From assembly GCA_965203095.1 (NCBI GenBank), contig OZ241877.1, positions 640,001 through 704,000 on the forward strand: a stretch of 64,000 bases of DNA, written 5' to 3'. Position numbers and translations under genes: made by a program. Shown here one piece after another: positions 3,793 to 20,306 of the stretch (positions are counted from its first letter, which is position 1; every line of letters starts with the position of its first letter). Source of the DNA: Bdellovibrionales bacterium (lineage in GTDB: Bacteria > Bdellovibrionota > Bdellovibrionia > Bdellovibrionales > UBA1609). Below the pieces are notes generated by a model. That model saw only the letters and a list, made by a program, of their open reading frames with translations, ran no database searches and was not told the DNA's origin.

Positions 3793-4950
3793 TTAGAAGT
3801 GAAAAGTCAACTCGCCATGAAGGCTGTTGGCTTCATCAGAGTCCACTCCATCAGTTAAGTTGTGGGCAAACTTGGCAACAAAATTAGTGTTGTCCCAAGG
3901 GTTATATTGTGCCCGAACAGCAATGCCTTTACCAGCACCTGTGAAGTAATCTCTGTTAAGTAAATCAGTGTTAAAATGATTGCCATCAATTTCATGGTAG
4001 CTTACAGCCAAACCAAAGTCGTTAGCTGACCCTGGAGACGCTTTGCCAGCCTCTCCAGCATAAACTCCACCGGTAAAATTAAGACCTTCGCCTAACTGAT
4101 CAACATTTGTCATATAAGCACCAAACACACCAACGGGAATACCCATATCCGCACTCACATGAACACCCACTTTAGCTAAAGTGACATCATTAGTGCTTTC
4201 TGTAGTAGCAGGTTCTTCTTCAGCTCCTGCTTCATCTGCTGTTTCGTCCGCAGTGTCTACTGTGGCAGTGCTTTCGACAGTTTTGTTAAAAAGACCGCCG
4301 TAATCAGCAGATACATAAACACCCGCTTTTACACCTTCAGCAAATTCAAACTTAGCACCCACTTTTCCAAATAAAATACCCCCTTCAGAAAAAGGGCCTT
4401 TGTAAGCTGTATCCAACTCATAAACACCCACTTTGCCGTAAAAACTGGCAGGGTCCTCATCTTCTCCATGACGATATTTAACCCAAGCCCCCGCAGGGTA
4501 AAGGTCTTCATCGTAAAGAACTCCCACTTTGTGAAAGCTGGGTTTAAAGGATTTTTTACCCGCTAATACAGAGAAGTTTTCCACTGGTGAATAAGAGACA
4601 TAAGCTTGTTCTAAAGCTATTGGAGTCACACCAGGGCCACCAAATACGGAATTGACTATACTCTTACCACTCATATCCCCTGAACTGCTACTAACACCCA
4701 CAGCCCATTTAACGGATTCATTCACATTACCTTGCCAACCCAATCTGGCTCTGTAAGAAGCCTCCCTTTCTTGTAAAACATCCCCATATTTTAGCTCAAC
4801 AGAACCTGTAAAGCCACTTTCTTCCTCCTCCATAGAACCGGTATCGCTTATCATATCAGACATGTGATCCACTTCTGTATGCGAATGCATTTCCGCAACA
4901 GAACTGAAACCAAATACAGCTGATATAATAAAAATAGATTTTTTAAACAT
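3793..4950 (-). CDS. putative porin
   Basis: Signal peptide after a GGAGG RBS, YRARLG and LEQAYVSY porin-like strands, C-terminal LTFHF, strong terminator. Confidence 0.7.
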   Translation of the reverse strand: MFKKSIFIISAVFGFSSVAEMHSHTEVDHMSDMISDTGSMEEEESGFTGSVELKYGDVLQEREASYRARLGWQGNVNESVKWAVGVSSSSGDMSGKSIVNSVFGGPGVTPIALEQAYVSYSPVENFSVLAGKKSFKPSFHKVGVLYDEDLYPAGAWVKYRHGEDEDPASFYGKVGVYELDTAYKGPFSEGGILFGKVGAKFEFAEGVKAGVYVSADYGGLFNKTVESTATVDTADETADEAGAEEEPATTESTNDVTLAKVGVHVSADMGIPVGVFGAYMTNVDQLGEGLNFTGGVYAGEAGKASPGSANDFGLAVSYHEIDGNHFNTDLLNRDYFTGAGKGIAVRAQYNPWDNTNFVAKFAHNLTDGVDSDEANSLHGELTFHF

Positions 4951-5438
4951 ATCTACCTCCTTAAGGTTATTTCTCATTTAGGGATAGTTAATACAAGTCA
5001 CGGTGACTTGTCAAATGCTGGCCTGCTTTTTTTAGGACTATGGATAAAAAAGCTATCTTCAGGGCAAAAAAAGAGAAAAAGCCTATAAAATAGGCTTTTT
5101 AGGGCCTATTTTTTGTTTTTATCAGCACCTTTTTTACATTCTGCAACATTTTTTTTAAAAAAAATATAAGATTTTTTCGTTTTTTTCTCAAAAAAAGACT
5201 GTTTTTGGCTATTTTCCCAAAAAAAACCTTTTTATTGGCTTTAAACTGCCCCACAGTGGGCTTTTTTATAAATCCAGCAGGAAAAATTCAGCCAAGATCG
5301 GATTTTAAAAAAGAGACGAATGGGGAAATACCAACCGATTATATACTTTACAAATGGTTTACTGAAAAGACAGCCGGCTTAAATTGAAGATGGCAAAAAC
5401 AAATCCCAGAGGGATTGGCCGGATAAGCAGGGAATAAA

Positions 5439-5595
5439 TAGTCGTCCGTGAAAAAGCTGGACAAAAAACCTCGTCCTCTTTTTCCTGCTTTTGTCCAAAG
5501 GCCATTCCATGAGTGTCCAAGGTATTGCCGTCCCGAAATGGAATGGTCCTTTAGACAAAAAAAGTTAAAAAACAAAGGTTTTTCACGGACAACTA
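5439..5595. mobile_element. MITE-like element with 17-bp terminal inverted repeats
   Basis: TAGTCGTCCGTGAAAAA (5439) versus TTTTTCACGGACAACTA (5579-5595): 16/17 complementary, TA at both outer ends. Confidence 0.6.
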
Positions 5596-6110
5596 AATAG
5601 ATTATTGCTTGGCTAAAAGCTTATCCAACAAAGGGGCTGAGCCGTGCATTTAAAAAGCAAAAGCTCCCTTAAGGAGCTGATGCTTGGATTTCAATAAACT
5701 AAAACCATTAAAGGATTTATCATTTATTATTATCATCCAAAGTGGCAAAAAAGTAAAGTAAAAATTTTAAAAAAATCAAAAGCCTTATTCTATGCGGGTT
5801 CTGGGGAAACTGTGGCCAGAGGGAAAGCACAAAAAAAGACCTTTCAGGGAAGGTCTAAACTACCACAGCACTTTAAGGAAAATCCTTTTGGCTGGTTTTT
5901 ATTTTTGAGTCTACAAGTGCCCCTTCAAAGTTTGCTCTGTATGTGTTCGCTATTTCGCTGACAAAATTTGCCTAAAAAACCGCTGGGCCTTTAGGCAAAC
6001 CTGGCTGAGCTTTTTCACAAGACCCTATTTAATAATGTCAAAAAGATTTAAAAATAAACTATCTGAACCTTGAAAAGACAGGCAAACAAAGGTATATCCT
6101 TTAATAATGT

Positions 6111-6187
6111 GGGGTGGTAGTTAAGTTGGTTATAACGCCGGCCTGTCACGTCGGAGGCCGCGGGTTCAAGTCCCGTCCACCCCGCCA
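6111..6187 (+). tRNA. tRNA-Asp (GTC)
   Basis: Acceptor GGGGTGG/CCACCCC, anticodon loop CT-GTC-AC, GGTTCAAGTCC T-arm, CCA end. Confidence 0.97.
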
Positions 6188-6333
6188 TTTAACCTCATAG
6201 CCAGCTCCCAGTATTTTACTAAGTGTCCCATAAAGAGCAAAAACCTTTTAAAAGAAACATTATTTTGAAAGGCTATAAATTGCCACTAAAATTTATTGCT
6301 TTAAGGCAAAAAAACATAAATACTTAATGTATC

Positions 6334-9183
6334 ATGGCAATCAACCAGAAAGAACATCAAGAGAAAATTAAAGCTTTTTTAGCTTGGTTCAAAAACTGTA
6401 AAGGTTCTGAAAAGGGAGAAGGTCAAATATTTTTTGACCGTCTTCTTAAAGCTTTTGGTAATACAGGCGTTATAGGAGCTGGAGCTGTTTGTGAACCACC
6501 AGTCAAAAAACAAAAAGGGAAAGGTGTTATTTTTCCCGATCTTGTTTGGAAGCCCAGAGTAATTATTGAATTAAAGAAGAGAGGCACCGCCCTTCAAAAG
6601 CACTATGATCAAGCTTTTGATTACTGGATTACTTTAGTCCCTAATCGTCCGAAATATATGATTTTATGTAATTTTGATGAATTTTGGATATATGATTTAA
6701 ACAGTCAATTACATGATCCTGTCCATAAACTAAATACAAAAGACCTCCAAACAAACTGGGGAGCTTTAAAGTTTCTTTTACCAATAGAAGAAGAACCTTT
6801 ATTTGACAATCATAATGTGGCTATCACAGAACAAGTTGCAAAGACTGTCGGTGCAATTTATCTATCTATGGTTAAAAGAGACATATCAAAGGATAAAGCT
6901 CAGAGATTCGTTTTGCAATTAGTTATAGCTTTGTTTTCAGAAGATGTTGGGTTAATGCCTCAATACACATTACATGAGATTTTAAAAAAATGTCTTACTG
7001 ATCTTCCAGCTCAAAAAGAACTATCTCTTTTATTTAAAGCTATGGCAAACAAAAATAAATTTGATAAACCTAAAAAATATAAACACATTGAATATTTTAA
7101 TGGAGGGATTTTTAAGAAAACTAACGCAGTGGAACTATCTTATAAAGAGGTAGAATTATTACATGATGCCTCAAAGCAAAATTGGGAAAAAGTTAGGCCC
7201 TCTATATTCGGTTCTCTTTTTGAGGGAAGTATGGATCCAAAAAGAAGGCACGGTCATGGTATTCACTATACTCATGAATTGGATATATATAAAATTGTTG
7301 GACCTTCTATTGTCAGGCCATTTCAAGAAAAAATAAACAAAGCAAAAACAAAAAGAGCAAAAAGAAAACTGTTGAAAGAAATACAGGAATTTAAAGTCTT
7401 AGATCCTGCTTGTGGTAGTGGGAACTTTCTTTATATTGCTTTCAGGGAGTTAAGAAAACTGGAAATGGAAATTTTAGAAGATTTAGGAGAGGGTAGACAA
7501 ATTCGTGCCTCAGAGCTGGGCTTGCTTGTTTCCCCAAGAAACTTTTATGGCATTGACACAAACAAATTTGGTTTAGAGTTAGCAAAAGTGGCTTTATCTA
7601 TTGGTCGAAAACTTTTGGCCGATGAGTTTAATATCCAAGATCCCTCTTTGCCTCTTGATGATTTAGACAATAATTTTTTATCTAAAGATGCTTTATTTAC
7701 TGAGTGGCCTAAAGTAGATGCAATTATTGGCAATCCTCCTTACCAATCCAAAAATAAAATCCAACAGGAAATGGGAGTAAGTTATATAAATAAATTGCGA
7801 AAAACGGAACCGCTTGTTCCGGGAAGAGCAGATTATTGTGTTTATTGGTTTAAAAAAGCTCATGATCATCTATCAAAAAAAGGTATGGCTGGATTGGTCG
7901 GAACAAACACAATAAGAGAAAACTATTCCAGAGAAGGAGGTTTGGATTATATCGTCCAAAATGGTGGCATCATTACAGAAGCTGTGTCCAGCCAAAAGTG
8001 GTCTGGTTCAGCGGCGGTTTATGTGTCCATAGTAAATTGGACAAAAGATGAATTTTATAGGCAAAAAATAAAAAAGCTTTTTATAAACCAGGGTAATGAA
8101 CCAAATTTTAAAGTCTATAAACGAAAAAAAATAAATTCTGCTTTATCTGTTGATATAGATGTCTCTCAGGCTAAAGTGTTAAATGTTAATAAAAAATCTA
8201 AAACGGCTTATCAAGGCCAAACCCATGGACATTCAGCTTTTTTAATACATAAAAAAGAGGCTGAAAAAATGATTTTCAAAAAACCAATTCTGAAGGATGT
8301 TTTAAAGCCTTTTTTAACAGCTCATAATTTTATAGCTGGAAAAACCTCTTTGCCTCAAAGATATGTCATAGATTTTTCAGATAAAACCCTAATACAGTCT
8401 CAAAAATATAAAGAATTATATAAAATTATAGAAAAAGCGGTTTTGCCAAAAAGAAGAGAAGAAGCAGAAAAGGAAAAGGCCAGAAACAAAACATTATTAA
8501 AAATAGATCCTAAAGCTAAAGTGAATAGACATCATAAAAATTTTTTAAAAACATGGTGGCGGTTATCTTATCCAAGAACAGACTTAATGAAGAAAATCAG
8601 AAAAATAAAAAGGTATTGTGTTTGTGGTCGTGTCACACAAAGAGGCATCTTTGATTTTGTCCATTCAGATATAAATCCAAATGATGCTTTGGTTGCTTTT
8701 GCTTTTGATGATGATTATTCTTTTGGCATTTTACAGTCCAGTATGCATTGGACTTGGTTTATTCATAGGTGCTCCACTTTGGGAACAGGTCCTCGTTACA
8801 CGATTAACACAGTATACGACACTTTTCCCTGGCCACAAAAACCTACTCTAACTCACATAAAGGCAGTGGCTAAAAAGGCTAAAGAATTAAGGAAAGCAAG
8901 AACAGAGATTTTAAAACAGGAAGAGGTAAGTTATCGCGACCTGTATCGCTCTATGGAATTGCCTGGAGATCACAAACTGCGAAAATATCATAAGGCTTTG
9001 GATAAAGCTGTTTATTCTGTTTACGGCTGTAAAAAAACTCAAGATGAGCTTGATTTTCTTTTGAAGTTGAATTTAGATTTATCTAAAAGAGAGGCCAGAG
9101 GAGAAAAGATCACAGGGCCAGGTTTGTCGCATATTGTCAAAAGCCCAACGGAGTTAATTACAAGGGATTGTATTTCTTTATAG
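6334..9183 (+). CDS. MmeI-like type IIL restriction-modification enzyme (fused endonuclease, N6A methyltransferase and TRD)
   Basis: PD..IIELK nuclease motif, QAFDYW, CNFDEF, YFNGGIF, IFGSLFE, DPACGSGNF, GNPPY, FGILQSSMHWTW..TFPWP. Confidence 0.88.
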   Translation: MAINQKEHQEKIKAFLAWFKNCKGSEKGEGQIFFDRLLKAFGNTGVIGAGAVCEPPVKKQKGKGVIFPDLVWKPRVIIELKKRGTALQKHYDQAFDYWITLVPNRPKYMILCNFDEFWIYDLNSQLHDPVHKLNTKDLQTNWGALKFLLPIEEEPLFDNHNVAITEQVAKTVGAIYLSMVKRDISKDKAQRFVLQLVIALFSEDVGLMPQYTLHEILKKCLTDLPAQKELSLLFKAMANKNKFDKPKKYKHIEYFNGGIFKKTNAVELSYKEVELLHDASKQNWEKVRPSIFGSLFEGSMDPKRRHGHGIHYTHELDIYKIVGPSIVRPFQEKINKAKTKRAKRKLLKEIQEFKVLDPACGSGNFLYIAFRELRKLEMEILEDLGEGRQIRASELGLLVSPRNFYGIDTNKFGLELAKVALSIGRKLLADEFNIQDPSLPLDDLDNNFLSKDALFTEWPKVDAIIGNPPYQSKNKIQQEMGVSYINKLRKTEPLVPGRADYCVYWFKKAHDHLSKKGMAGLVGTNTIRENYSREGGLDYIVQNGGIITEAVSSQKWSGSAAVYVSIVNWTKDEFYRQKIKKLFINQGNEPNFKVYKRKKINSALSVDIDVSQAKVLNVNKKSKTAYQGQTHGHSAFLIHKKEAEKMIFKKPILKDVLKPFLTAHNFIAGKTSLPQRYVIDFSDKTLIQSQKYKELYKIIEKAVLPKRREEAEKEKARNKTLLKIDPKAKVNRHHKNFLKTWWRLSYPRTDLMKKIRKIKRYCVCGRVTQRGIFDFVHSDINPNDALVAFAFDDDYSFGILQSSMHWTWFIHRCSTLGTGPRYTINTVYDTFPWPQKPTLTHIKAVAKKAKELRKARTEILKQEEVSYRDLYRSMELPGDHKLRKYHKALDKAVYSVYGCKKTQDELDFLLKLNLDLSKREARGEKITGPGLSHIVKSPTELITRDCISL

Positions 9184-9260
9184 CCTGTATGGAACATTTT
9201 TTGCTTTATAATCGTATGGTTTTGTGATTAATAAAGAGTAAAGATATAGGAGCAAGTCAA

Positions 9261-9533
9261 ATGTATGAAAAGATATTAGAAGTCAAAGGGCCAGCAAAAG
9301 GGGCTATTCGGCGAGTAATGCCAGATATTGGCTTTGGTGCTATTTGGGATAAAAAGAATAAGCAGGATGTATATTTTTCGACTGTAACAAAATTCATCAA
9401 TACTTCTTATGAGGAGCTTAACGAAGGTGATATAGTAGAAGTCTTGGTTGTCAGAACAGCCAGGGGTCTATTTGCCAAAAATCTTTCTTTAAAAACAGCT
9501 CGCCCTCCTCAAGAAGTTAGTCCAAATCTATAA
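9261..9533 (+). CDS. cold-shock (OB-fold) domain protein
   Basis: RNP1/RNP2-like GFGAI...DVYF, LNEGDIVEV..RGLFAKN; AGGAG RBS. Confidence 0.7.
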   Translation: MYEKILEVKGPAKGAIRRVMPDIGFGAIWDKKNKQDVYFSTVTKFINTSYEELNEGDIVEVLVVRTARGLFAKNLSLKTARPPQEVSPNL

Positions 9534-9555
9534 AATGGTTTATCTTTTTTGTTGC

Positions 9556-9606
9556 TTAAAAATGTTGAGGAAAAGGTCCTTTAAATACCCATGAACCAAA
9601 AATAAT
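9556..9606 (+). repeat. left bipartite inverted repeat of the four-gene cassette
   Basis: TTAAAAATGTTGAGGAAAA...ATGAACCAAAAAT; inverted match at 14250-14286 and direct match at 58522-58565. Confidence 0.75.
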
Positions 9607-9639
9607 GTTGAAACCCTAAATTATTAAGGAAAAAATACT

Positions 9640-10926
9640 GTGAAAATATCAAATTTAAAAATTAAAAACATTAAGTGCTTTAAAGAAATTGAAATTCCAT
9701 TTGAGGATAATGGAGAAATAAAAAAATGGTCTCTTGTTGTGGGAAACAACGGAGACGGCAAAACTACTATTCTAAGGTGTCTTGCACTTGGATTGTGTGA
9801 TGAATCTGGAGCCTCAGCCCTTTTAGCAGAATTATATGGCTTTTTACGAGAACATGAAGAAAAAGGCTCTATTGAAGTTATTTTAAAGGATGAAAATGAA
9901 AACAAAAAATACCAAATAAATACAGAGATAACTCTAAAAGGAAACAACGAATCTGTTTCTCAAAAGATATATCCCTTAAATTCTAAAAATGAACGAGATA
10001 AAGAAATAACTGCAACAGAATTAAATGATCTCAGGGATAAAATTTTTGCTATTGCTTACGGATCAGGTAGAAGCATCACCGGCACAGAATCGTATGAAGA
10101 ATATGCAGTTGTTGATTCTGTATATTACCTTTTTAATTATAAACATCCTTTACAAAATGCAGAACTTGGAGCACGGAGAATAGAATCTAAATCTAAAAAA
10201 CAACTCAATGAATTAACAAATTGTCTAAAAAAAATATTAATGTTAAAAGATAACGATGAGATTATACTGAACCCAAAAGGTTTGTTTATGAAAACGAACC
10301 AATGGGGGCTTAGGTCTTTTAATTCCTTAAGTGATGGTTATCAATCACTTACAACTGTGATCATAGATTTTTTAAGCTGGAGGCTTTTGTATGACAGCAA
10401 AAGTTTTGATTTAAGCAAAACTTCAGGCATTTTTATTATTGATGAAGTGGAGCAACACTTGCACCCTAAGTGGCAAAGAAACATTATAAACATTCTTGCC
10501 CAACAGTTTCGGAATATACAATTTATAGGTGGCACACATACTCCTATTTGTGCTTTAGGACTTAATGACTTAGAATGCAAATCACAACTTATTAAAACCT
10601 CTTATGTGAATAATCACAGTGAGGTGGAGAGTTTGGATATGAAGGAAACCTATAAAGGCTACAGAGTGGATCAAATATTGACCTCCGATATTTTTGAATT
10701 AACAAGTGCAAGAAGTAAAAAAATGCAAAAAACCCTTGAAGATTATCAGAATATTTATTTAAAAAGAGAGAATGAAAGAACCACACAAGAGATAGAAAGG
10801 ATGAAGCAAATAGAAAAAGAGCTTAAAGATCTTCCAATGTGGGATACCCTGCGGGATAAAAGGATAAGAGAGCAACTGTCTCACTTGCTTGAACAAAATC
10901 AAGGCACTAAACATGATAAAGATTGA
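9640..10926 (+). CDS. ABC/AAA_21-type ATPase (PtuA/Septu-like)
   Basis: Walker A GNNGDGKT, signature LSDGYQ, Walker B IIDEVEQHLHPKWQ, THTP; GTG start. Confidence 0.85.
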   Translation: MKISNLKIKNIKCFKEIEIPFEDNGEIKKWSLVVGNNGDGKTTILRCLALGLCDESGASALLAELYGFLREHEEKGSIEVILKDENENKKYQINTEITLKGNNESVSQKIYPLNSKNERDKEITATELNDLRDKIFAIAYGSGRSITGTESYEEYAVVDSVYYLFNYKHPLQNAELGARRIESKSKKQLNELTNCLKKILMLKDNDEIILNPKGLFMKTNQWGLRSFNSLSDGYQSLTTVIIDFLSWRLLYDSKSFDLSKTSGIFIIDEVEQHLHPKWQRNIINILAQQFRNIQFIGGTHTPICALGLNDLECKSQLIKTSYVNNHSEVESLDMKETYKGYRVDQILTSDIFELTSARSKKMQKTLEDYQNIYLKRENERTTQEIERMKQIEKELKDLPMWDTLRDKRIREQLSHLLEQNQGTKHDKD

Positions 10927-11689
10927 ACGCAATAAAGTGCCTCAAAACACCAGCATGGATCAGAAGAAAGCTACAGAGCTTGAAAAGATCAAAAAAGCCA
11001 TTGATAAGAAAAGCAAACCACAATTTGTGCCTTTATGGACAAGAGACAGGAAAGTAAAAGAATATCTTGGTAAGTCTCAATATGGAAAATGTTGTTATTG
11101 TGAGCAAAAAAGGAATCTGGCGGAATCTGATGTGGAGCATTTCCGGCCTAAAGCTGAATTAAAGGAAAACAAGAAGCACCCGGGCTATTGGTGGCTGGCA
11201 TATAGTTGGGATAATTTACTTATATCATGTAAAAAATGCAATAATCGTAAAGGGACAAATTTCCCTCTCAAAGATGAAAGTAAAAGAGTTTTCTCTGAGA
11301 AAGATGACCTACAAAAAGAAGAACCCTTTTTAATTAACCCTTTAACTGAAAACCCGGAAAAATTTATAAAATATGATATTCCTGAGAATAACACAAAGCC
11401 ACCGATGATAAAAGCCATTGGAAAATGTGAAAGAGGGGATAAAACAGTAAATGAGCTGACAGGAATAAACTCTGAAAATGTTCCTTTAAGGAGGGCGGAA
11501 AAGTTTGAGCATTATTTATATTTATGCAAGTATCTTGCCTTACTTAAAAAAGATAATTCAAACAATTGTGCTGAAATAGAGCAAGTTAAAAAAGATATGA
11601 GAAAAATGCAAGATTCATCCAGTGAATTTGCAGGTCTGGCCAGAGATTATTTTATTCGAGTTCTAGGCTTAAGAGGCTTAAATGATTGA
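10913..11689 (+). CDS. HNH endonuclease (PtuB-like)
   Basis: GKCCYCE, DVEHFRPK, YWWLAYSWDNLLISCKKCNNRKG..FP, LINP. The ATG at 10913 overlaps the end of the ATPase gene. Confidence 0.85.
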   Translation: MIKIERNKVPQNTSMDQKKATELEKIKKAIDKKSKPQFVPLWTRDRKVKEYLGKSQYGKCCYCEQKRNLAESDVEHFRPKAELKENKKHPGYWWLAYSWDNLLISCKKCNNRKGTNFPLKDESKRVFSEKDDLQKEEPFLINPLTENPEKFIKYDIPENNTKPPMIKAIGKCERGDKTVNELTGINSENVPLRRAEKFEHYLYLCKYLALLKKDNSNNCAEIEQVKKDMRKMQDSSSEFAGLARDYFIRVLGLRGLND

Positions 11690-12845
11690 GAAACTTCCAT
11701 ATAAAAACAATTTGCCACCAAACACACCGTATTTTCTTTTTGATAAAGAGAATTTAAGAGAGAGATTATTCTTACATAAAACAATAGAGAGAAAATCAAA
11801 TATTAAATTAGTTTATTCTATTAAATCTCTCTCGCATATAGAAATTCTTAAAGAAATTGCAAAACATATTAAAGGTTTTTCTGTCAGTTCCCTTTTTGAA
11901 TCAAATTTAGTTAAATGTATAACTAATAAACAACATACAATTCATTTTATAAGTCCCGGGATTAAAGCTGGCCAATGGGATATGATCTCTAAAACAGCTC
12001 ATTTTGTGACATTCAATTCTGTAGAACAGTTTATGAGGTTTAAAAACAAGCTAAAATCTAAAACAAGTTATGGGATTCGTTTAAATCCTGAAATATCTTT
12101 CATTTCCGATTCTCGTTATAATCCTTGCAGAAAATCTTCTAAATTAGGAGTGCCTCTATCAGATATATTAAAATTTTTAGAAAAATCAAGATATGCCAAA
12201 CAATTAAAAGGGCTACATTTTCATAATAACTGCGATAGTCATAATTTATCTGAACTCACAAAAACTTTTAAACAAATTGAATTTTATTTAGGGAAATATC
12301 TAAATAAATTTGAATGGATTAACCTTGGAGGAGGATACTTATTCAATAACTCAAATGATATAAATACCTTCTATTATTTAATACAATATATTAAACAAAA
12401 ATATAAATTCAAGAATATCATTATAGAACCTGGAAGTTCTTTAGTGCGAGATACTGCTTATCTTGTTTCCTCAGTTATTGACATATTCAAAAGAGAGGGA
12501 AAAAACATAGCCATTTTAGATACAACAACTAATCATTTGCCAGAAGTTTTTGAGTATCAATATACCCCCAATATAGTAGAATCTAACACTTCAGGTCCTT
12601 ATGAGTATATGTTAGCAGGTTGCAGTTGCTTGGCAGGAGATATTTTTGGAACATATTTTTTTAAAAAAAAGCTTAAAATAGGTTCAAAGATAACATTTAA
12701 TAAAGTAGGAAGTTATTCTCTTGTAAAAGCTAATATGTTTAACGGAATTAATTTACCTGATATTTATTATTTAGAAAATAACATGCGGTTAAAAAATATA
12801 AAAAATTATACTTTTAATGATTATATGAACTATTGCGGAGGATAA
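11682..12845 (+). CDS. PLP-dependent carboxynorspermidine decarboxylase-like enzyme (Orn/DAP/Arg decarboxylase family)
   Basis: TPYF, YSIKS (PLP Lys), RLNPE..YNPC..SKLG, GLHFH, NLGGG, IEPG, AGCSCLAGD, GSY..FNGINLP. Confidence 0.85.
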   Translation: MIEKLPYKNNLPPNTPYFLFDKENLRERLFLHKTIERKSNIKLVYSIKSLSHIEILKEIAKHIKGFSVSSLFESNLVKCITNKQHTIHFISPGIKAGQWDMISKTAHFVTFNSVEQFMRFKNKLKSKTSYGIRLNPEISFISDSRYNPCRKSSKLGVPLSDILKFLEKSRYAKQLKGLHFHNNCDSHNLSELTKTFKQIEFYLGKYLNKFEWINLGGGYLFNNSNDINTFYYLIQYIKQKYKFKNIIIEPGSSLVRDTAYLVSSVIDIFKREGKNIAILDTTTNHLPEVFEYQYTPNIVESNTSGPYEYMLAGCSCLAGDIFGTYFFKKKLKIGSKITFNKVGSYSLVKANMFNGINLPDIYYLENNMRLKNIKNYTFNDYMNYCGG

Positions 12846-12848
12846 AGT

Positions 12849-14249
12849 TTGATGAATTTTTTTGAAAAAGAAATTTTAATATCAAAAGTTAAAAATAATA
12901 AAAAATTGCTTTTTTATCTTAAAGAAAAAATTTCCTCCATATTAGGTAAAGAAGGGCTATTTCCTATTAGATTCATTATTACAAATAGTTCCAATCAAGA
13001 ATATAAATGTGAAGTTAGTGTTTTAGATACAAAAAATATGAGTGGGTTTAAAGAAGCAGAATATTTATTTGAATTTCAAAAACGCCAGTTTGAAAACACA
13101 AAAACTTTTAATGTCGTTTTTATAGTTCCTACAGGAATAGGAGCTGAAATAGGAGGCCATGCAGGGGATGCTACTCCAATCGCAAGGCTAATAGCCTCTG
13201 CTTGTGACACTTTAATTACTCATCCCAATGTTTGTAATGCATCAGATATCAACGAAATGCCAGAGAACAGTATGTATGTTGAAGGGAGCACTATCTGTCG
13301 TGTGATGATGGGCACAATTGGCTTACAACCAGTAAGATCAAATAGAATTTTAGCTGTTATAGATAATAATGAACATAAAATTTTTGAGAATACTGCCATA
13401 AACTCTATAAATGCGGCAAGAGCTACTTTAGGTATTAACTGCTCAAAAATTATAAAATTATTACCGCCTATTTCAATGACATCAAAATATTCATCTTCTA
13501 AAAGAGCTGTTGGAAATATCAAAGATATAAATAATCTATTTTCTATTATAAAACAACATCAAGGAGATCATGACGCTGTTGCTATTTCATCTATAATTAA
13601 AGTTCCTAAAAATTATCATAAGGATTATTTTCTTAGTAAAGGAGACATGATTAATCCTTGGGGAGGAGTAGAGGCTATGCTAACTCATGCTCTTTCATAT
13701 AAATTTAATATACCTTCCGCACACTCTCCAATGTTTGAAACTCCTGAAATTGCTAATATGGATCCTGGAATCGTAGATGTTAGAATGTCTGCCGAAGCTG
13801 TTTCTGCCTCTTTTTTCCATTGTGTTCTTAAAGGCTTGCACAAGAGTCCAAAAATTATAACTGAGAAAGATGCATTCTACTCCGACGGTATTATATCAGC
13901 AAAAGATATTTCTTGTTTAGTAATACCCGATGGTTGTTTAGGACTTCCAACTCTTTCAGCTTTAGAGCAAGGAATTAAAGTTATTGCTGTAAAAGAAAAC
14001 AAGAATTTAATGTGTAATGACTTATCTACTTTACCATGGAGTAAAGGGCAGTTTTTCCAAGTTGAAAATTATTTAGAGGCTGTTGGTATATTAAATGCAA
14101 TAAAAAATGGCATCAATCCAAAATCTGTAAGGCGTCCATTTCAAACATTATCAAGTGAATGTGAAATAAACCAAGCATTGACAAAACAAAATAAACAAAA
14201 CAAGCATACAATATTATCTGTATTTCCTAAACTATGGCAAAAGCATTAA
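12849..14249 (+). CDS. DUF3326 family protein (function unknown) with ~85-aa N-terminal extension
   Basis: IVPTGIGAEIGGHAGDATP, LITHPNVCNAS, YVEGS, GGVEAMLTH, IPSAHSP, VENYLEAVG match my recollection of DUF3326. Confidence 0.75.
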   Translation: MMNFFEKEILISKVKNNKKLLFYLKEKISSILGKEGLFPIRFIITNSSNQEYKCEVSVLDTKNMSGFKEAEYLFEFQKRQFENTKTFNVVFIVPTGIGAEIGGHAGDATPIARLIASACDTLITHPNVCNASDINEMPENSMYVEGSTICRVMMGTIGLQPVRSNRILAVIDNNEHKIFENTAINSINAARATLGINCSKIIKLLPPISMTSKYSSSKRAVGNIKDINNLFSIIKQHQGDHDAVAISSIIKVPKNYHKDYFLSKGDMINPWGGVEAMLTHALSYKFNIPSAHSPMFETPEIANMDPGIVDVRMSAEAVSASFFHCVLKGLHKSPKIITEKDAFYSDGIISAKDISCLVIPDGCLGLPTLSALEQGIKVIAVKENKNLMCNDLSTLPWSKGQFFQVENYLEAVGILNAIKNGINPKSVRRPFQTLSSECEINQALTKQNKQNKHTILSVFPKLWQKH

Positions 14250-14286
14250 ATTATTGGTTCATAAATATTTTTCTCAACATTTTTAA
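14250..14286 (-). repeat. right bipartite inverted repeat of the four-gene cassette
   Basis: Reverse complement reads TTAAAAATGTTGAGAAAAA-tattt-ATGAACCAATAAT; 18/19 and 12/13 identity to the two blocks of the left repeat. Confidence 0.75.
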
Positions 14287-14533
14287 TATAAAAAATCTAC
14301 TACATCTTCCTGAAAGGATTGGGCTTGTTTTCTCAAACATATTTCCAAAAAAGAACCTCGCACTAAATCAACTTGATCTCTTAGAGAGTCTGAAAATTCT
14401 TTAGCTCCTTTTGCCTTAAAAAACTTTATAAGTTTTTTGTAGTATTCCTAAAACTTGCAAGATAAAATGAACTATTATATTTTTTTTCACTCTGCCATTT
14501 TTCTCTTGCAAGTATAAGCCAATATCAACCTGC

Positions 14534-15868
14534 TCAGTAACGGTAGTTTTGTGATTTGAATGGCCCTTCCTGAGGCACATTCAAGTATTCTGCCTGTGAC
14601 TTACTCAGTTTTGTAAGTTGAGCCGATAGTTTCCCTAAGTGCAAACGAGCCACCTTTTCATCTAAAATTTTAGGCAGAACATGAACACCAACAGGATAGT
14701 CTCTATGGTTTTGCCAAAGCTCTATTTGAGCCAAAACCTGATTGGTAAAAGAAGTGCTCATTACAAAAGAAGAATGCCCTGTCCCGCAAGCCAAATTAAC
14801 TAAACGGCCCTCTGCCAAAACAATAATTTCCCTCCCATTAGAGAGGCGATGGATTTGGACCTGATCTTTAACCCGCCGGGACTGGCTGTTTGCCTTAAGC
14901 CACTTCATATCCACTTCCACATCAAAATGGCCAATGTTGCAAACAATAGCTCCTGATTTCATTTTTTCAAAATGCTCTTTTTGAATGACCCCCTTGCAAC
15001 CAGTAGCTGTGACGAAAATATCCATCTCATCAGCCACATCCTGTAGCCGAACCACCTCATACCCCTCCATACGAGCCTGAAGGGCACATATCGGATCAAT
15101 TTCTGAAACAAAAACCCTGGCACCAAAAGAACGCAAACTTTGGGCAGAACCTTTGCCCACATCTCCATAACCAGCCACCAAAGCCTTTTTTCCGGCTATC
15201 ATAATATCTGTTGCTCTTTTTAAACCATCAGCTAAAGACTCCCGGCAACCATAAAGATTATCAAATTTAGATTTTGTCACAGAGTCATTCACATTGATAG
15301 CTGGAACTTTTAAACGGCCTTTTTGGTTCAATTTTTTTAAGTATTGAACTCCTGTAGTGGTTTCTTCTGAAAGCCCCCGGACATTTTTCATCAAACTCGC
15401 CTGCCCGTCTTCATGCATAAATTTTGTAAGGTCCCCTCCGTCATCAATGATCAAATCAAAACCCTTCCCGCCCCAACCATAAACAGACTGCTCGATACAC
15501 CAATGATACTCTTCTTCTGTCTCCCCCTTCCAAGAAAAAACGGGAACTCCGGCCTGAGCTAAAGCCACCGCGGAATGATCTTGTGTGGAGTAAATGTTAC
15601 AGGAAGACCACCTCAGCTCAGCTCCTAATTTGAGCAAAGTCTCTATCAAAACGGCGGTCTGAATAGTGACATGAAGGCAACCTGTGATTTTAGCCCCTTT
15701 TAGAGGGGCGAGAGGCCCATACTCCTCTCTTAAAGCCATAAGCCCAGGCATTTCCACTTCAGCTAAGCGAATCTCCTCCCGCCCCCATCGAGCCAGCTCT
15801 TCAAACTGCTTTTTGTTCCCCATAGAGGCGACCTTATAATCAGAAAAAATATTTTTAGCAGGGATCAT
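14534..15868 (-). CDS. ahcY: adenosylhomocysteinase
   Basis: [51 protein letters not shown]. Confidence 0.97.
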
Positions 15869-16028
15869 TTTATTTTTATAATGTCTTTGTAAAGATATGT
15901 CTACAAAATCCTTTGGCTTTTTGGAGTTTTCTCACAGAAAATCATAAAAGCACTAAACAGTGGCCCGTGAAAAACCTCTATAATTCAAAGGGGATTTTTC
16001 AGTTTCTTTGCCTAAAGGCCGTCTTTCC

Positions 16029-16787
16029 TTATTGCTGAGAGAGGTTTTTTATTATTCTCCAGCTCTCATCCTTTGAACATTGTAAAGCTATATAACATTC
16101 CAAACAAAAATTATCCTGCTCAGCGATCTTCAAAGGGAGATTATCAAAAATGTCGTCAATACAAAGTTGAGCTGAATCATAGTTTTCCGCATTCACAACA
16201 ATTCCTTTTTCCTCATTAGTAATTCTATAAGAGGAATGGCTAACAAGCTCCATAAGCATAGTTTCCACTTCTTCTGGATAATTCCAACGAATATAGTCCC
16301 AAGGGCTGGCCCCATATACATCCAATATATCTAAATCCGCTCCGGCCTCCACTAACATTGTAATAATTGAGACATCCACCTCAAACATTAAAGCTTTGTG
16401 CAAAGGGCTTTCACCGTCTTTATTCAAAACATTTACACTTGCCCCTGCATCCAATAAAAGTTGAGTCATCTTAAAGCTGTTATGGCTAAAAACAGATAAA
16501 TGCAAAGGAGTATCACCTTTACTATTCTGAGCGTTCACATTCGCACCTTCTGACAGCAAAAATTGAGCCACATTGGGATCAATATTGAATCTAACTGCCC
16601 CGTGCAAAGCGGTCCCTATGTCACCTCTGAAGTTTATGTCAGCACCTTCAGCCAATACCTCTTGCACCTCCTCTACAGTCCCCAACTGAGATAAATTCAG
16701 AAGAGCTGTTCCCAACTCGTTGGGAGTCCTATCGGAAAAAGCCATAAAAGGACCTGCAAATAACACAATAGCTAATAAAATCCTCAT
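16029..16787 (-). CDS. secreted ankyrin-repeat protein
   Basis: GTALH, GDTPLH, GESPLH repeats. Signal peptide from MRILLAIV after an AAGGAGG RBS; the upstream MDSRFHGND comes from a palindromic repeat. Confidence 0.85.
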   Translation of the reverse strand: MRILLAIVLFAGPFMAFSDRTPNELGTALLNLSQLGTVEEVQEVLAEGADINFRGDIGTALHGAVRFNIDPNVAQFLLSEGANVNAQNSKGDTPLHLSVFSHNSFKMTQLLLDAGASVNVLNKDGESPLHKALMFEVDVSIITMLVEAGADLDILDVYGASPWDYIRWNYPEEVETMLMELVSHSSYRITNEEKGIVVNAENYDSAQLCIDDIFDNLPLKIAEQDNFCLECYIALQCSKDESWRIIKNLSQQ

Positions 16788-16799
16788 AACAACCTCCTT

Positions 16800-16826
16800 A
16801 TCATTCCCGTGAAAACGGGAATCCAA
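16800..16826. repeat. palindromic repeat (ATTCCC-N8-GGGAAT family)
   Basis: TCATTCCCGTGAAAACGGGAATCCA, identical to cores at ~39702 and ~44431. Confidence 0.8.
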
Positions 16827-16915
16827 AATTATTTGTCTGTTTTATAACTTACATTTCCTTAAAAATCAATTTTTTTTCTAAAAAGTGAAAATTTTACAAA
16901 AGACAAAGAATATAA

Positions 16916-17005
16916 TGGCGGAGAGGGAGGGATTCGAACCCCCGAGACCTGTGAAGGTCTGCCGATTTTCAAGACCGGTGCAATCAACCGCTCTGCCACC
17001 TCTCC
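16916..17005 (-). tRNA. tRNA-Ser (TGA)
   Basis: GGAGAGG acceptor, anticodon loop CT-TGA-AA, long variable arm, GGTTCGAATCC, CCA end. Confidence 0.97.
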
Positions 17006-17093
17006 AAAAAAAATCTTTTTTATTAACTTCCTGCTTTTAAACTCAAAATAAACTTTGTCCTACCACTTCTCAAAAAAAAATTCTGTTAAAAAT

Positions 17094-17351
17094 TTAAGCC
17101 ATAACTATTACCGTATAAAATTTCAGAGAGACAAGCAAAAAAGCTAAACATATATCTAAAACTAAAAGGCGGGGCCACTTCCAACCCTTTACAAACTGCA
17201 AAAAAGCCCAACTGATAGAAATCATCAAAAAAACAAAAGAAAACAAGCCAAAAGCCAAAAACTCCTGCCCGATAAGAGTCAAAATATAAGCGACACAAAG
17301 GGCAGAGCCAAGCTTAAGTATCGATAAAGCTATTTTTTTTATAGACTTCAA
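17094..17351 (-). CDS. small membrane protein
   Basis: 85 aa with three hydrophobic segments; abuts the TPR gene. Confidence 0.6.
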   Translation of the reverse strand: MKSIKKIALSILKLGSALCVAYILTLIGQEFLAFGLFSFVFLMISISWAFLQFVKGWKWPRLLVLDICLAFLLVSLKFYTVIVMA

Positions 17352-20306
17352 TCACTCCCCCTTCCCTGTATTGGACAAGTTTCGCTTTTCCTTAATCAAC
17401 CGTTCTATCCGGCTCTCAATTTCTTTTCTATCATCAGCTCCTGGCCGAAGATTAAAATATTCAGAATAGTAAGACCTCGCTTTGTAATATTGATCTTTGA
17501 TTTCATAAATAATACCTATTTCCTTATAAAGTTCCGGATGGCCGGAAAGTTCCTCTGTCCGAACCAACTGCTCTGCCAGTTGTAAAGCCGAATCCAAATC
17601 CCCTGCACCTTTATAACACTCAATAAGCCCAATGGAAATATCAATATTATTTCTAAAATATTTTGCGGCTTTTTGATACTCCTTTACACAAAGTTTATAA
17701 ATGGCCTGTTTTTCGACAAGATCACTAAAAGCTCCTTTGGATTTTAACCTGTAAATATCACCGGCCAGTTGATAGGGGAGAAAATTATTAGGAGTTTTAG
17801 CCGACTGAACTTTAGCAAACTTTAAAGCTTTTTTTAAATTATCTGCACCTTGTTGATGAAAATTAGCCAAACCTATATAATAATGAATGAGCGGATAATT
17901 GGAGTTGATTTGTAAAATTTTTTCAAATTCAGCTTCTGCCTGTTTATAATTCTCATGTTGCAGGTGAGCTTGTCCAACATAAAACACAGGCTCAGGATCT
18001 GATATATCCAATAAAGAAGCCTCTAAAAAATATCTTAAAGCTTGTTGATACTTCTCCCCTTGTTTTCCTTCTTTATAGGCTAAATAATCGTAAATTCTTC
18101 CCAAATAAATATAGGCCGGTTTGAACTTAGGATCTTTTTCAATAATACCAGAAAATTGATCCAAAGCCATATCATACATTCCTTTTTCAAAATAATATTC
18201 TCCTAAAGCTTGAGGATATTCCATCATCATCTCAAAACCATCAATTAATTTTTTAAACTGTTTTATTGCATGGCTGGAACCAAAAGCCAAATCCAAAGCA
18301 TACGCATAAGCTATTTGTGCTGAAATACTGTTCATATCATTTTGCACAGCCTTTTCCGCATAGCTAAAGGATTTATGAGCCTGCCCCAAAACACGATAAG
18401 CCCGGCTCAACAAAACATAAAGATCTATGTCTGAAGTGTAAAACTTCAAAGCCCTTTCAGCATAAGCAACAGCTGATGAGTATTCTTTTTTATGAAAATA
18501 CAAAAAAGCATAAGCTTTAAAAAGATCATAATTGCTGGGTTTTTGGCTTTTAACAGCTTTTAAAATTTCTTTAGCATTTTCAAAGTCATACAGTTCAGCA
18601 AGATATCTGGAGAGCAAAAAATAAGCCTCTAAAAACTGACCGTCAACATTGATGGCTCGTTTAAGCCAACGAATGGCCTGACCAAAAGCTCCGGCCAGCC
18701 AATAGCATTGAGCCAACTTAAAAGCGGCTTGAGCATTCTTTTTCCCGCCAACATTATAAGCTTTTTTAAAGTATTTTTTAGCTGAAGAGCAGTCCCCCTG
18801 ATCAACAAGCATATCCCCTTTATAAATTAAACTTGTGGGGTTAAGCTCTTCTTCAATAGAATCACTCTTTTCCCCAAGTTGGGATTTTAAAAGGTTAACA
18901 TTGGAATTTTCAGGATCCAAAGTGTAAGCCAAATTGGCATATTTTAAAGCCTCTACCTTATTAGCCCGTTTGATATAAATGTTAGCTAAAGCAAGATAAG
19001 CCTCTATTAAAATATCTGGCGGGACAAAATAATTTAAACGAACTAATAAAGACCTAAGTCTCTTTTCACTATTTCCAAATTTTTTAAGGATTTTGTATTC
19101 CAAGATTCCCATTCTCAAATTGGCCATATCATGACCTGGGAAAATATCCAGAACTTTTTGGTATGATTTTATAGCTAAATCATATTTACGATGTTCATAA
19201 AATATTTTCCCGGACAATAAATAAGGAGCTGTCCATTTTGGTTTTGTTTTATTTATACTTCGAATAAACCCTCCCGCCGGTGCTGTTTTGTTAAGAGCCT
19301 TAAGTGCCTGAGCCTTCATATAATAAAAATAAAAATAAAAAGGAGGAGGTTTATCCCCCATGGGGTTTAAAATACTATCAGTGATCATTAAAGACTGTGC
19401 CGGAGCTTTATTTATAAAAGCTTGAACCGATCGGCATATTGCCGAAAAAAAACCTCCTGAATCATATTCATTGGCCATTTCAATAGTCTTTTTAATAGCG
19501 TTCTTATCCCTCCTATCCTGATGTGAAAAAGGCCAAAGCTCTAAATAAGTAAGACAAAGGTAAAGATAAATTCCTTTCTCTTCTGGATGACTTTCCAACA
19601 ATCTAATATAATGTGTCTGAGATTTTAGATAGTTGGGAACGCCCCCTTTTAAAAACAAAGCCAAAGCTGTTTTTAGCTTGGCCTTTTTCTCAGACGGCGA
19701 CAAAGGCTCTCTTATTTGATCAACAGAAAATAAATGAACGGGGCCTTTTTCTGGCTGATGTTGTGTGTCCTGAACAAAAAAAATCACAGCACATACTACT
19801 AAAAAGAGAGTTAAGAAAGCCAAAAGAGGGACTTTAAAAGATTGTTTAAGTTTATCAAAAAAACCTTCCTGAATATCCTCCATTTCAATAATCTCACTGA
19901 CTCCCTCTTCTTCTAAAACGCTTTTTTTAAATTCTTTAGATAACTTTATTTTGATTTTTTTATCCTGAAAGTTTTTAGAAGATTCACTGCCTGATTGGGT
20001 ATTGATAACGCGAGTAGGCTCTATCAGCTCTTCTTTAGAGATGGACTCATCTAAGGACTCTTGTCCGCTTGTTGATTTTTTAGAAGAAGAGTGGCCAGAA
20101 TCACTTTTACTATGAAGAGAAGATAAAATCTTTTTATAAAAAACAGGATGAGTGGATAAAGGCTTCCATCTCCCAGAGGGATAAGAGGAAAAAAACTCTT
20201 CCCCTTTAAACTCTTTTTCCTCAATATAAAAACAAACTTCCCCTTCAGTATAAGGGCCAAAAATTCTGCCTTTTTTATCTTTTATTAACCAAAGCTTATC
20301 TTCCAT
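17352..20306 (-). CDS. membrane-anchored TPR protein with N-terminal GYF_2-like domain
   Basis: WLIKDKKGRIFGPY...GRWKPL, one TM helix, many TPR repeats. Start MEDKLW follows a GGAGG RBS. Confidence 0.8.
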   Translation of the reverse strand: MEDKLWLIKDKKGRIFGPYTEGEVCFYIEEKEFKGEEFFSSYPSGRWKPLSTHPVFYKKILSSLHSKSDSGHSSSKKSTSGQESLDESISKEELIEPTRVINTQSGSESSKNFQDKKIKIKLSKEFKKSVLEEEGVSEIIEMEDIQEGFFDKLKQSFKVPLLAFLTLFLVVCAVIFFVQDTQHQPEKGPVHLFSVDQIREPLSPSEKKAKLKTALALFLKGGVPNYLKSQTHYIRLLESHPEEKGIYLYLCLTYLELWPFSHQDRRDKNAIKKTIEMANEYDSGGFFSAICRSVQAFINKAPAQSLMITDSILNPMGDKPPPFYFYFYYMKAQALKALNKTAPAGGFIRSINKTKPKWTAPYLLSGKIFYEHRKYDLAIKSYQKVLDIFPGHDMANLRMGILEYKILKKFGNSEKRLRSLLVRLNYFVPPDILIEAYLALANIYIKRANKVEALKYANLAYTLDPENSNVNLLKSQLGEKSDSIEEELNPTSLIYKGDMLVDQGDCSSAKKYFKKAYNVGGKKNAQAAFKLAQCYWLAGAFGQAIRWLKRAINVDGQFLEAYFLLSRYLAELYDFENAKEILKAVKSQKPSNYDLFKAYAFLYFHKKEYSSAVAYAERALKFYTSDIDLYVLLSRAYRVLGQAHKSFSYAEKAVQNDMNSISAQIAYAYALDLAFGSSHAIKQFKKLIDGFEMMMEYPQALGEYYFEKGMYDMALDQFSGIIEKDPKFKPAYIYLGRIYDYLAYKEGKQGEKYQQALRYFLEASLLDISDPEPVFYVGQAHLQHENYKQAEAEFEKILQINSNYPLIHYYIGLANFHQQGADNLKKALKFAKVQSAKTPNNFLPYQLAGDIYRLKSKGAFSDLVEKQAIYKLCVKEYQKAAKYFRNNIDISIGLIECYKGAGDLDSALQLAEQLVRTEELSGHPELYKEIGIIYEIKDQYYKARSYYSEYFNLRPGADDRKEIESRIERLIKEKRNLSNTGKGE

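Follow-up and report, generated by a model that had tools for sequence, protein, structure and literature searches.

The DNA analyzed here is a window of 64,000 nucleotides (the whole stretch, at its full length) from the genome of a Bdellovibrionales bacterium (contig OZ241877.1, positions 640,001 to 704,000 of the forward strand). Four open reading frames (ORFs) on its + strand fill positions 9640 to 14249 and encode, in order, PtuA and PtuB, which are the ABC-type ATPase and the HNH nuclease of the Septu defense system, an NspC-like pyridoxal phosphate (PLP)-dependent decarboxylase, and a DUF3326 protein. The same four-gene layout is found in distant bacteria, which suggests an undescribed variant of Septu.

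The four-gene operon and its proteins

The junctions within the operon are -14, -8, and +3 nt, in that order. The first gene, ptuA (9640 to 10926, + strand), has a GTG start, encodes 428 amino acids (aa), and was identified with PADLOC and Pfam. Starts were called from the longest ORF, which for ptuB begins at 10889; the PADLOC alignment of this second ORF begins at residue 9, corresponding to ATG 10913, and we therefore place ptuB at 10913 to 11689 (+ strand, 258 aa), overlapping ptuA by 14 nt. The decarboxylase gene (11682 to 12845, + strand, 387 aa) begins at ATG 11682 and overlaps ptuB, whose TGA occupies 11687 to 11689, by 8 nt. Its own TAA (12843 to 12845) is followed by the DUF3326 gene (12849 to 14249, + strand), starting either at TTG 12849 after a gap of 3 nt (466 aa) or at ATG 12852 after 6 nt (465 aa). 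An earlier note on this DNA, made from the sequence alone, had described four tightly coupled genes that are AT-rich relative to their surroundings. Both points were confirmed; the GC content is 0.26 to 0.35 over 9.5 to 14 kb, compared with 0.38 to 0.44 in the flanks, and nowhere in the region is GC lower than in the four genes. Because the tight arrangement recurs in other genomes, it is not a chance feature of this window. Motif inspection and alignment showed the catalytic motifs to be intact in all four proteins. A promoter and terminator scan stayed at chance level (23 promoter-like sites, 24.9 expected), and no conserved sequence was seen upstream of ptuA across the 7 cassettes compared.

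PADLOC returned a complete Septu pair, with ptuA directly before ptuB on the same strand, which upholds the earlier description of the ATPase and HNH protein as PtuAB-like. PtuA matched PDLC00304 (E of 5.1e-61, residues 3 to 418 on profile positions 12 to 437 of 444) and the Pfam families AAA_15, AAA_21, and SMC_N; Walker A (GNNGDGKTT) and Walker B (IFIIDEVE) motifs are both present. PtuB matched PDLC00339 (E of 1.1e-54, profile positions 1 to 254 of 261) and TIGR02646 (54.4 bits, over the cutoff of 52.15), and contains the motif series CxxC...DVEHFRPK...N...CxxC. The solved Escherichia coli Septu is distant in sequence: the nearest solved chain to PtuA, the Septu PtuA 8ee4, was matched with an E of 1e-16 over about 125 residues (177 to 303 only), and a search of solved chains gave no relative of PtuB at an E of 1e-3.

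The third protein contains both fold domains of the Orn/DAP/Arg decarboxylases (PF02784 and PF00278), together with the motifs YSIKS, GGGY, EPGS, and CSCLAGD, which we take to belong to the PLP site. Its nearest solved chains are carboxynorspermidine decarboxylases (CANSDCs; 172 to 202 bits, the best being 3n29 at 202), compared with 91 bits for the best DAP decarboxylase. It matched TIGR01047 (nspC) with an E of 2.1e-89 and 299.6 bits, under the equivalog cutoff of 409.05. By these matches the enzyme is a member of the CANSDC family that most resembles carboxynorspermidine decarboxylase, yet falls below the threshold for the nspC equivalog. The earlier note had remarked that neither a reverse transcriptase (RT) nor carboxynorspermidine dehydrogenase (CANSDH) is encoded in the window, and this extends to the host genome (G000; 1.8 Mb, 90% complete), where neither RVT_1 nor the family of CANSDH and carboxyspermidine dehydrogenase (CASDH; Sacchrp_dh_C, PF16653) was found. 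Elsewhere the host genome carries two further group-IV decarboxylase genes and two SpeE-like (spermidine-synthase-like) genes, so that the cassette is an addition to an ordinary polyamine set.

The fourth protein matched PF11805 over nearly the whole profile (E of 1.2e-94; 317.5 bits against a gathering score of 25; residues 89 to 427 on positions 2 to 336 of 337). An extra N-terminal domain of about 85 aa makes it a long form of DUF3326, a family for which a protein search listed over 6,000 members, and it retains every invariant column of a 54-sequence alignment. An AlphaFold2 model (pLDDT 84, pTM 0.85) gave nothing informative when compared with the PDB by Foldseek (best E of 1e-3, TM below 0.25), a PDB profile search gave nothing under an E of 0.05, and the ESM Atlas held no usable match. 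Wide comparison by VIA-align yielded generic Rossmann-like matches only (best Z of 6.9), among them GT-B C-terminal domains, lumazine synthase, and MCP/TM1055, with saccharopine reductase at Z of 5.3. Since the model matches only such generic folds, the chemistry of DUF3326 is not established by structure; nor do weak matches show that the fold is new. A complex prediction for PtuA and DUF3326 scored 0.00, which counts neither way on binding.

The earlier note knew of no function for DUF3326. This no longer holds, as DUF3326 has a genetic role in triamine formation through PavB. In the pavettamine cluster, as reported in the available part of bioRxiv 10.64898/2026.06.12.731819, PavB is a DUF3326 protein, PavA combines a Rieske domain with an annotated carboxynorspermidine decarboxylase, and both are required for pavettamine; bacteria with PavA and PavB contain N-(5-aminopentyl)pentane-1,5-diamine, which is abolished by deleting either gene. 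Since both proteins are needed for the triamine, the window's DUF3326 protein is probably the missing partner of the NspC-like enzyme, and not an orphan. By analogy with PavA and PavB, we infer that the decarboxylase and DUF3326 constitute an amine (triamine)-forming pair, in which DUF3326 would stand in for CANSDH/CASDH or for homospermidine synthase (HSS).

Recurrence and turnover of the layout

A scan of species-representative genomes yielded 48 DUF3326 loci, which were re-annotated from all ORFs of at least 60 aa; as the loci were gathered via DUF3326, the frequencies given here describe DUF3326 loci near this query and not Septu as a whole. A decarboxylase gene adjoins DUF3326 in 35 of the 48, being NspC-like in 24 and S-adenosylmethionine decarboxylase (AdoMetDC)-like in 11 (Pfam PF02675; local hidden Markov model). 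Two loci end at a contig edge, and 11 contain short-form DUF3326 genes, mostly from Planctomycetota, with no adjacent decarboxylase. The ptuA and ptuB genes lie directly upstream of the enzyme pair, in the same order, in 10 of the 48 loci, as well as in the window and in its relative G017. Six of the 10 have an NspC-like gene (L011 to L016) and four an AdoMet_dc-like gene (L021, L023, L026, and L035; PF02675, E of 1e-12 to 1e-15). PADLOC confirmed PtuA and PtuB in the nine loci submitted (whole-protein E of 1e-31 to 1e-65), with PtuB alone submitted for L023. Of 11 related loci, 10 have the decarboxylase gene spaced -8 to +56 nt from ptuB; the remaining one, L012, carries a transposase gene insertion. 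Record and tree labels assign the linked genomes to Bdellovibrionota, Thermodesulfobacteriota, Myxococcota/"Deltaproteobacteria," and Pseudomonadota; source names in the protein database add Candidatus Dadabacteria, represented by DUF3326 P0018 and PtuA P0164, both with a longest contig of 246,304 bases.

DUF3326 is rare, being present in 5 of 41 close relatives, while PF11805 occurs in 4 of 401 genomes of the window's phylum and in 2 of 401 of a second phylum; the cassette is thus accessory and not core. The closest DUF3326 loci are those of metagenome-assembled genomes (MAGs) of Bdellovibrionales bacteria. In G017 the same four genes, in the same order, lie beside TnsA-like and DDE transposase genes, and other copies have defense or mobile neighbors, including BrxL, a D12 methylase, an AbiEi-like protein, transposases, and TnsA-like genes. 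The grouping of the four genes as one unit, made in the earlier note from a single copy, is therefore matched by a layout conserved in defense or mobile contexts. One Thermodesulfobacteriota MAG (L015, 1288 to 5843; G420:C1, about 2033864 to 2037642) has two tandem PtuA-PtuB pairs before a single NspC-like gene and DUF3326.

The layout is kept while its parts are exchanged. Among the 10 linked loci the third gene encodes either a PLP enzyme (NspC-like, 6 of 10) or a nonhomologous pyruvoyl enzyme (AdoMetDC-like, 4 of 10), and the order is unchanged. The syntenic loci L021 (3267 to 8763) and L026 (3814 to 9216) are 88% identical in the left flank, 82% in AdoMetDC, 84% in DUF3326, and 86% in the right flank; PtuA and PtuB are 40% and 34% identical. 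From these identities we read that the nuclease pair alone has been exchanged in place or has diverged to an extreme degree. L023 has other flanks, and its enzymes are 80 to 88% identical to those of L021 and L026, with PtuB at 35 to 41%; different Septu pairs, by this comparison, have taken one and the same place ahead of an enzyme pair that hardly changes. Because the decarboxylase has been displaced by a nonhomologous enzyme and PtuAB exchanged with the layout preserved, these loci argue that the adjacency of PtuAB and the enzyme pair is selected. In a DUF3326 tree of 53 proteins (a quick maximum-likelihood tree with SH-aLRT support only, its group labels taken from an earlier locus annotation than the tallies above), the rows linked to PtuAB are spread over at least three places; one clade comprises nine rows, of which eight are linked and the ninth is L010.

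We also examined the converse association, starting from PtuA. Four genomes among the 401 of the window's phylum gave PtuA matches at an E of 1e-8 or better. The two strong ones, in the window genome G000 and in G202 (58% identity), are the only two with DUF3326 adjacent; the two weak ones (27 to 33% identity) are without it. In the second phylum, 18 of 401 genomes matched the PtuA-lineage profile. G421 was alone in matching strongly (480 bits; the others at most 89) and alone in having DUF3326 adjacent; G742, in the same phylum, contains DUF3326 without PtuA. These counts are consistent with a link between the strong PtuA lineage and DUF3326, on a thin sample. Among the closest DUF3326 cluster representatives (at least 63% identity), 23 of 53 match one of the 119 closest PtuA representatives (53 to 72% identical to the window PtuA) in exact longest-contig size, which serves as a proxy and gives a lower bound; when only contigs of 8 kb or more are counted, 21 of 41 match. 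A scan of metagenomes with PtuA alone, not sensitive enough to answer the reverse question, returned three loci at 25% identity, each a PtuA-PtuB pair without DUF3326. A scan of viral contigs with a PtuA alignment returned 14 loci (best-segment identity at most 45%, and at most 37% where more than 100 residues matched), none with DUF3326.

Relation of the enzyme pair to Septu

Given its full PtuA and PtuB profile matches, co-oriented and overlapping genes with ptuA first, intact Walker and HNH motifs, and defense-island context, the pair resembles Septu type I. It differs in the two enzyme genes that come after it at -8 to +56 nt, as they also do in at least 11 further genomes. The stand-alone character of Septu, which has no conserved operon partner, does not apply to this pair, and because the enzyme genes follow at -8 and +3 nt, and do so recurrently, we file the locus as a Septu variant and not as a plain member.

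PtuAB is described as an ABC-ATPase/HNH pair that arrests the host when released (PMC12819146). The same source reports, in its available part, that the nicking of DNA by stand-alone PtuAB declines with rising ATP, that retron Ec78 has co-opted PtuAB through sequestration by RT and msDNA (multicopy single-stranded DNA), and that the trigger of stand-alone Septu, with ATP level and a phage tail fiber as candidates, is still debated. As the stand-alone form responds to ATP and the retron form is sequestered by RT-msDNA, PtuAB is an effector that can be placed under different controls. Type I-A retrons (Ec78/Eco7 and Ec83) are similar to the window in that PtuAB shares an operon with an extra module that may control it, a precedent for bringing PtuAB under a new regulator (PMC12819146). 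They differ in that neither the window nor its genome encodes an RT, and no retron RNA was matched in 5500 to 17500 at an E of 0.1 or less; the retron equivalogs scored far under cutoff (NF041760, 114.4 bits against 500; NF041761, 43.2 against 150), and the window PtuA, at 428 aa, is without the N-terminal extension of retron PtuA chains of about 550 aa. The earlier note had proposed that the two enzymes replace the usual regulator of the pair. We do not retain this proposal, since stand-alone Septu has no RT regulator and both window proteins span the full profiles with no extra domain.

Three known systems resemble the enzyme half of the cassette. PavA and PavB likewise join a carboxynorspermidine-decarboxylase-like enzyme to DUF3326, both needed there for a triamine. 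The Pav cluster differs in the Rieske domain of PavA and in a JmjC-like PavC, neither of which is found in the window proteins, and in having no PtuAB (bioRxiv 10.64898/2026.06.12.731819); this comparison is by description and not by sequence. In the route to (nor)spermidine by CANSDH/CASDH and CANSDC or carboxyspermidine decarboxylase (CASDC), the decarboxylase corresponds to that of the window, which is nearest to solved CANSDCs, but DUF3326 occupies the partner's place. Finally, AdoMetDC homologues derived from SpeD are reported often to be ornithine or arginine decarboxylases, phage-encoded, horizontally spread, and clustered with homospermidine synthases (PMC10407285). The cassette's sister form, with an AdoMetDC-like gene immediately before DUF3326, recalls these enzymes, whose partner in the available part of that source is HSS, SpeY, SpeE, or CASDH, with no mention of DUF3326.

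The earlier note knew of no described system with this composition, and we found none. PADLOC v2 has no model for the decarboxylase or for DUF3326 (0 families), and a full-text literature search, which covered few subscription journals, returned no description of PtuAB combined with a decarboxylase and DUF3326. The same search gave no paper on defense that names DUF3326, none joining carboxynorspermidine decarboxylase to anti-phage activity or Septu/PtuA to polyamines, and none joining defense islands, polyamine biosynthesis, and HNH.

Gene content, motifs, coupling, recurrence, replacement of the decarboxylase, and turnover of PtuAB are computational observations. From these we tentatively favor the reading, to which we give a little less than an even chance, that the four genes would act together against phages, as a variant Septu with a functional tie to an amine-forming module. 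One mechanism can be outlined. DUF3326 would carry out the condensing step done elsewhere by CANSDH/CASDH or homospermidine synthase, and the decarboxylase would supply or finish the amine, giving a spermidine- or homospermidine-like polycation. This product, and not a protein contact, would couple the enzyme pair to PtuAB; a small-molecule link fits because enzyme pairs that are almost the same adjoin highly divergent PtuAB pairs. Most likely the amine would keep either PtuAB or the nucleic acid on which it acts inactive or protected, and infection would unleash the nuclease by cutting amine synthesis or by bringing in unprotected nucleic acid. Such a metabolite-gated Septu, with a noncanonical polyamine from the operon's own enzymes as the "antitoxin" or license of PtuAB, is conceivable, although we consider it rather unlikely in this specific form. 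The earlier note, too, had named a gating metabolite among its options.

Several results weigh against the reading as one functional unit. PtuA and PtuB span the full Septu profiles with no added domain, and the fold of DUF3326 gave no informative match. PtuAB can be exchanged beside the same enzymes, so that there is no sign of co-adaptation between the two halves. It also decays first, the enzyme genes staying whole, in three loci: in L013 (2422 to 4969) a DDE insertion sequence element splits ptuA; in L012 (2344 to 5313) ptuA is broken up into two ORFs, with a PD-(D/E)XK transposase gene lying between ptuB and the decarboxylase gene; and in L010 (4478 to 5512) a YhgA-like transposase gene takes the PtuAB position. 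Of the 35 decarboxylase-bearing loci, 25 have the pair but no PtuAB, and some of these clusters look metabolic, with fatty-acid desaturase, amine oxidase, deoxyhypusine-synthase homologue, and AMP-ligase neighbors. In a viral-contig collection, AdoMetDC-DUF3326 is present on four of the five DUF3326-bearing phage-like contigs, the fifth having no decarboxylase seen alongside; thus the pair is useful in its own right. The reverse test draws on small numbers, with three strong PtuA-lineage matches in 802 genomes, two of which are query centers. There is also a precedent for co-location with no mechanistic tie: a Septu embedded inside the Hma system is considered to work independently (bioRxiv 10.1101/2024.01.29.577857, available part). 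That Septu, like the one described here, holds a fixed position relative to the genes of another multigene unit, but it lies between defense-system genes, whereas the window Septu precedes two metabolic-type enzymes. The earlier note had allowed that its proposal would fail if NspC-like/DUF3326 pairs were unlinked to ATPase-HNH or other defense genes elsewhere, and here the loci divide: PtuAB is linked in 10 of 48, and the pair stands without it in 25 of 35 and on the four phage-like contigs.

The same results give substance to the strongest alternative, which is that two independent modules travel together: an ordinary Septu and a self-sufficient amine-forming pair would share a promoter and a mobile islet, the product of the pair being useful by itself, possibly in a separate anti-phage or pro-phage role, and neither module needing the other. 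The pair alone, the ordinary full architecture of PtuAB, its swapping and its decay beside a persisting pair, and the Hma-embedded Septu are all as expected from such co-travel, as is the report that AdoMetDC homologues with ornithine or arginine decarboxylase activity are phage-encoded and horizontally spread (PMC10407285). It accounts less well for the order and the tight or overlapping junctions, which are kept in distant genomes with different flanks, and for a layout that outlasts changes of both decarboxylase type and PtuAB type. The strong PtuA-lineage matches all adjoin DUF3326 (n = 3, 802 genomes), and no other defense family is found in such fixed fusion with the pair among the 48 loci. 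We regard co-travel as a serious possibility, though it too is doubtful.

A further proposal, raised in the earlier note, is that the enzymes add an amine-type group to nucleic acid or take one off, either to mark the cell's own DNA or tRNA so that PtuB spares it or in the processing of amine-modified phage bases. Purely by analogy, Septu and retron-linked PtuAB are reported to act on DNA and tRNA-Tyr (PMC12819146; PMC13096335, available parts). The neighboring restriction-modification gene encodes a modification-dependent type of enzyme, and from established enzymology we would expect both decarboxylase families to act on 3-amino-3-carboxypropyl-type substrates. However, the sole experimental datum on a DUF3326-decarboxylase pair, in the available Pav report, is a free triamine; the pair is also found in clusters with small-molecule tailoring enzymes; Pfam detected no nucleic-acid-binding domain in either enzyme; and the fold search gave generic Rossmann-like similarities only. 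We consider a nucleic-acid mark improbable. That this is housekeeping polyamine biosynthesis with Septu inserted upstream by chance is very improbable indeed: the decarboxylase is closest to carboxynorspermidine decarboxylases and the pair in G011 lies among housekeeping genes, but DUF3326 is confined to 5 of 41 close relatives and to 4 of 401 and 2 of 401 phylum genomes, SpeE-like and other decarboxylase genes lie elsewhere in the genome, GC in the region is lowest across the four genes, and the 10 further loci that share the gene order are not accounted for by chance.

Septu is widespread, and a PtuA lineage with an enzyme pair offers a handle on how the stand-alone pair is silenced and triggered. 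If the metabolite-gated reading of the operon is true, this would be the first ATPase-nuclease defense under a dedicated small-molecule pathway, and DUF3326 would be a third kind of triamine synthase, so that a function would be assigned to the family. Polyamine chemistry would then be linked to dedicated immunity; the link between polyamines and immunity has so far been described as a general danger signal only (PMC9992862, available part). Should the modules be independent, the decarboxylase and DUF3326 would together still be a strong candidate for a new route to polyamines; an unrelated type of enzyme has taken over as the decarboxylase, and the pair is carried on phage-like contigs.

Neighboring genes and other DUF3326 loci

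The setting beside an MmeI-like restriction-modification gene and a tRNA, pointed out in the earlier note, was verified. The MmeI-type type IIG restriction-modification enzyme, outside the operon, is encoded at 6334 to 9183 (+ strand, 949 aa; PDLC03599, 1189.7 bits, residues 6 to 948) and has the Pfam domains MmeI N, hel, Mtase, TRD, and C. A tRNA-Asp(GTC) gene at 6111 to 6187 (+ strand; ARAGORN; Rfam tRNA, 69.9 bits) lies at the left edge of the low-GC stretch. Between the restriction-modification gene and ptuA lies a cold-shock-domain (CSD)-like ORF (9261 to 9533, + strand, 90 aa), with a subthreshold CSD match of 21.5 bits, a PADLOC CSD_V match of 8.4e-4, and 20.3 bits against a cutoff of 82 for NF038236, the retron Se72 effector. 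The sole terminator-like hairpin (9442 to 9465) falls inside it. This ORF was considered as a fifth component and rejected, because it is not next to PtuA in any related locus.

To the right, on the opposite strand, is a gene for S-adenosylhomocysteine hydrolase (AHCY). An ankyrin-repeat protein of 265 aa (16029 to 16826, - strand) that matches the PADLOC candidate family PDC-M72A (1.6e-17) is encoded between the AHCY gene and a tRNA-Ser. The AHCY gene is common in same-genus genomes (76 to 80% identity), and the other genes of the window were not found within about 16 kb on the island side of AHCY there. Because no direct repeat of the tRNA-Asp was found further to the right and the relatives do not resolve the island borders, low GC is what marks the region, and an insertion event is not demonstrated.

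Copies of the enzyme pair outside the PtuAB setting take several forms. In the viral collection, an AdoMetDC-like gene lies directly before DUF3326, without PtuAB, in L067 (234 to 2008), L068 (5292 to 7362), and L069/L070 (6474 to 8191); in L068 a 252-aa ORF has the AdoMetDC domain as its C-terminal half. Two of these contigs, of 173 and 241 kb, encode identical DUF3326 proteins. Alphaproteobacterial MAGs (L036, L039, and L056, at about 4865 to 9232, and also L037 and L055) contain genes for a fatty-acid-desaturase-like protein, an NspC-like enzyme, DUF3326, and a CxxCxxCC protein, with a deoxyhypusine-synthase homologue additionally adjacent in L037; from its gene content this cluster looks like a tailored-polyamine pathway.

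Other proteins are found upstream of the pair. In L017 (1281 to 5601), three consecutive proteins of 438, 514, and 476 aa precede NspC-like-DUF3326, with no informative Pfam match (the second has a subthreshold DUF6638) and no PADLOC match; this set may be another partner module in the PtuAB slot. A protein of about 400 aa with weak membrane-protein-like Pfam matches only is encoded before AdoMetDC-DUF3326 in three unrelated genomes (L019, 5321 to 6541; L022, 5379 to 6578; L025, 5274 to 6476). In L007 (5567 to 9589; G011) and L008 (6382 to 10907; G009), both without PtuAB and in housekeeping surroundings, the NspC-like and DUF3326 genes face each other across two ORFs, of 182 and 251 aa and of 279 and 253 aa, respectively. 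In L094 (4618 to 9470; G742), DUF3326 has no adjacent decarboxylase and lies behind a DruA-like/transposase fusion and an integrase fragment, in what looks like a degraded mobile context.

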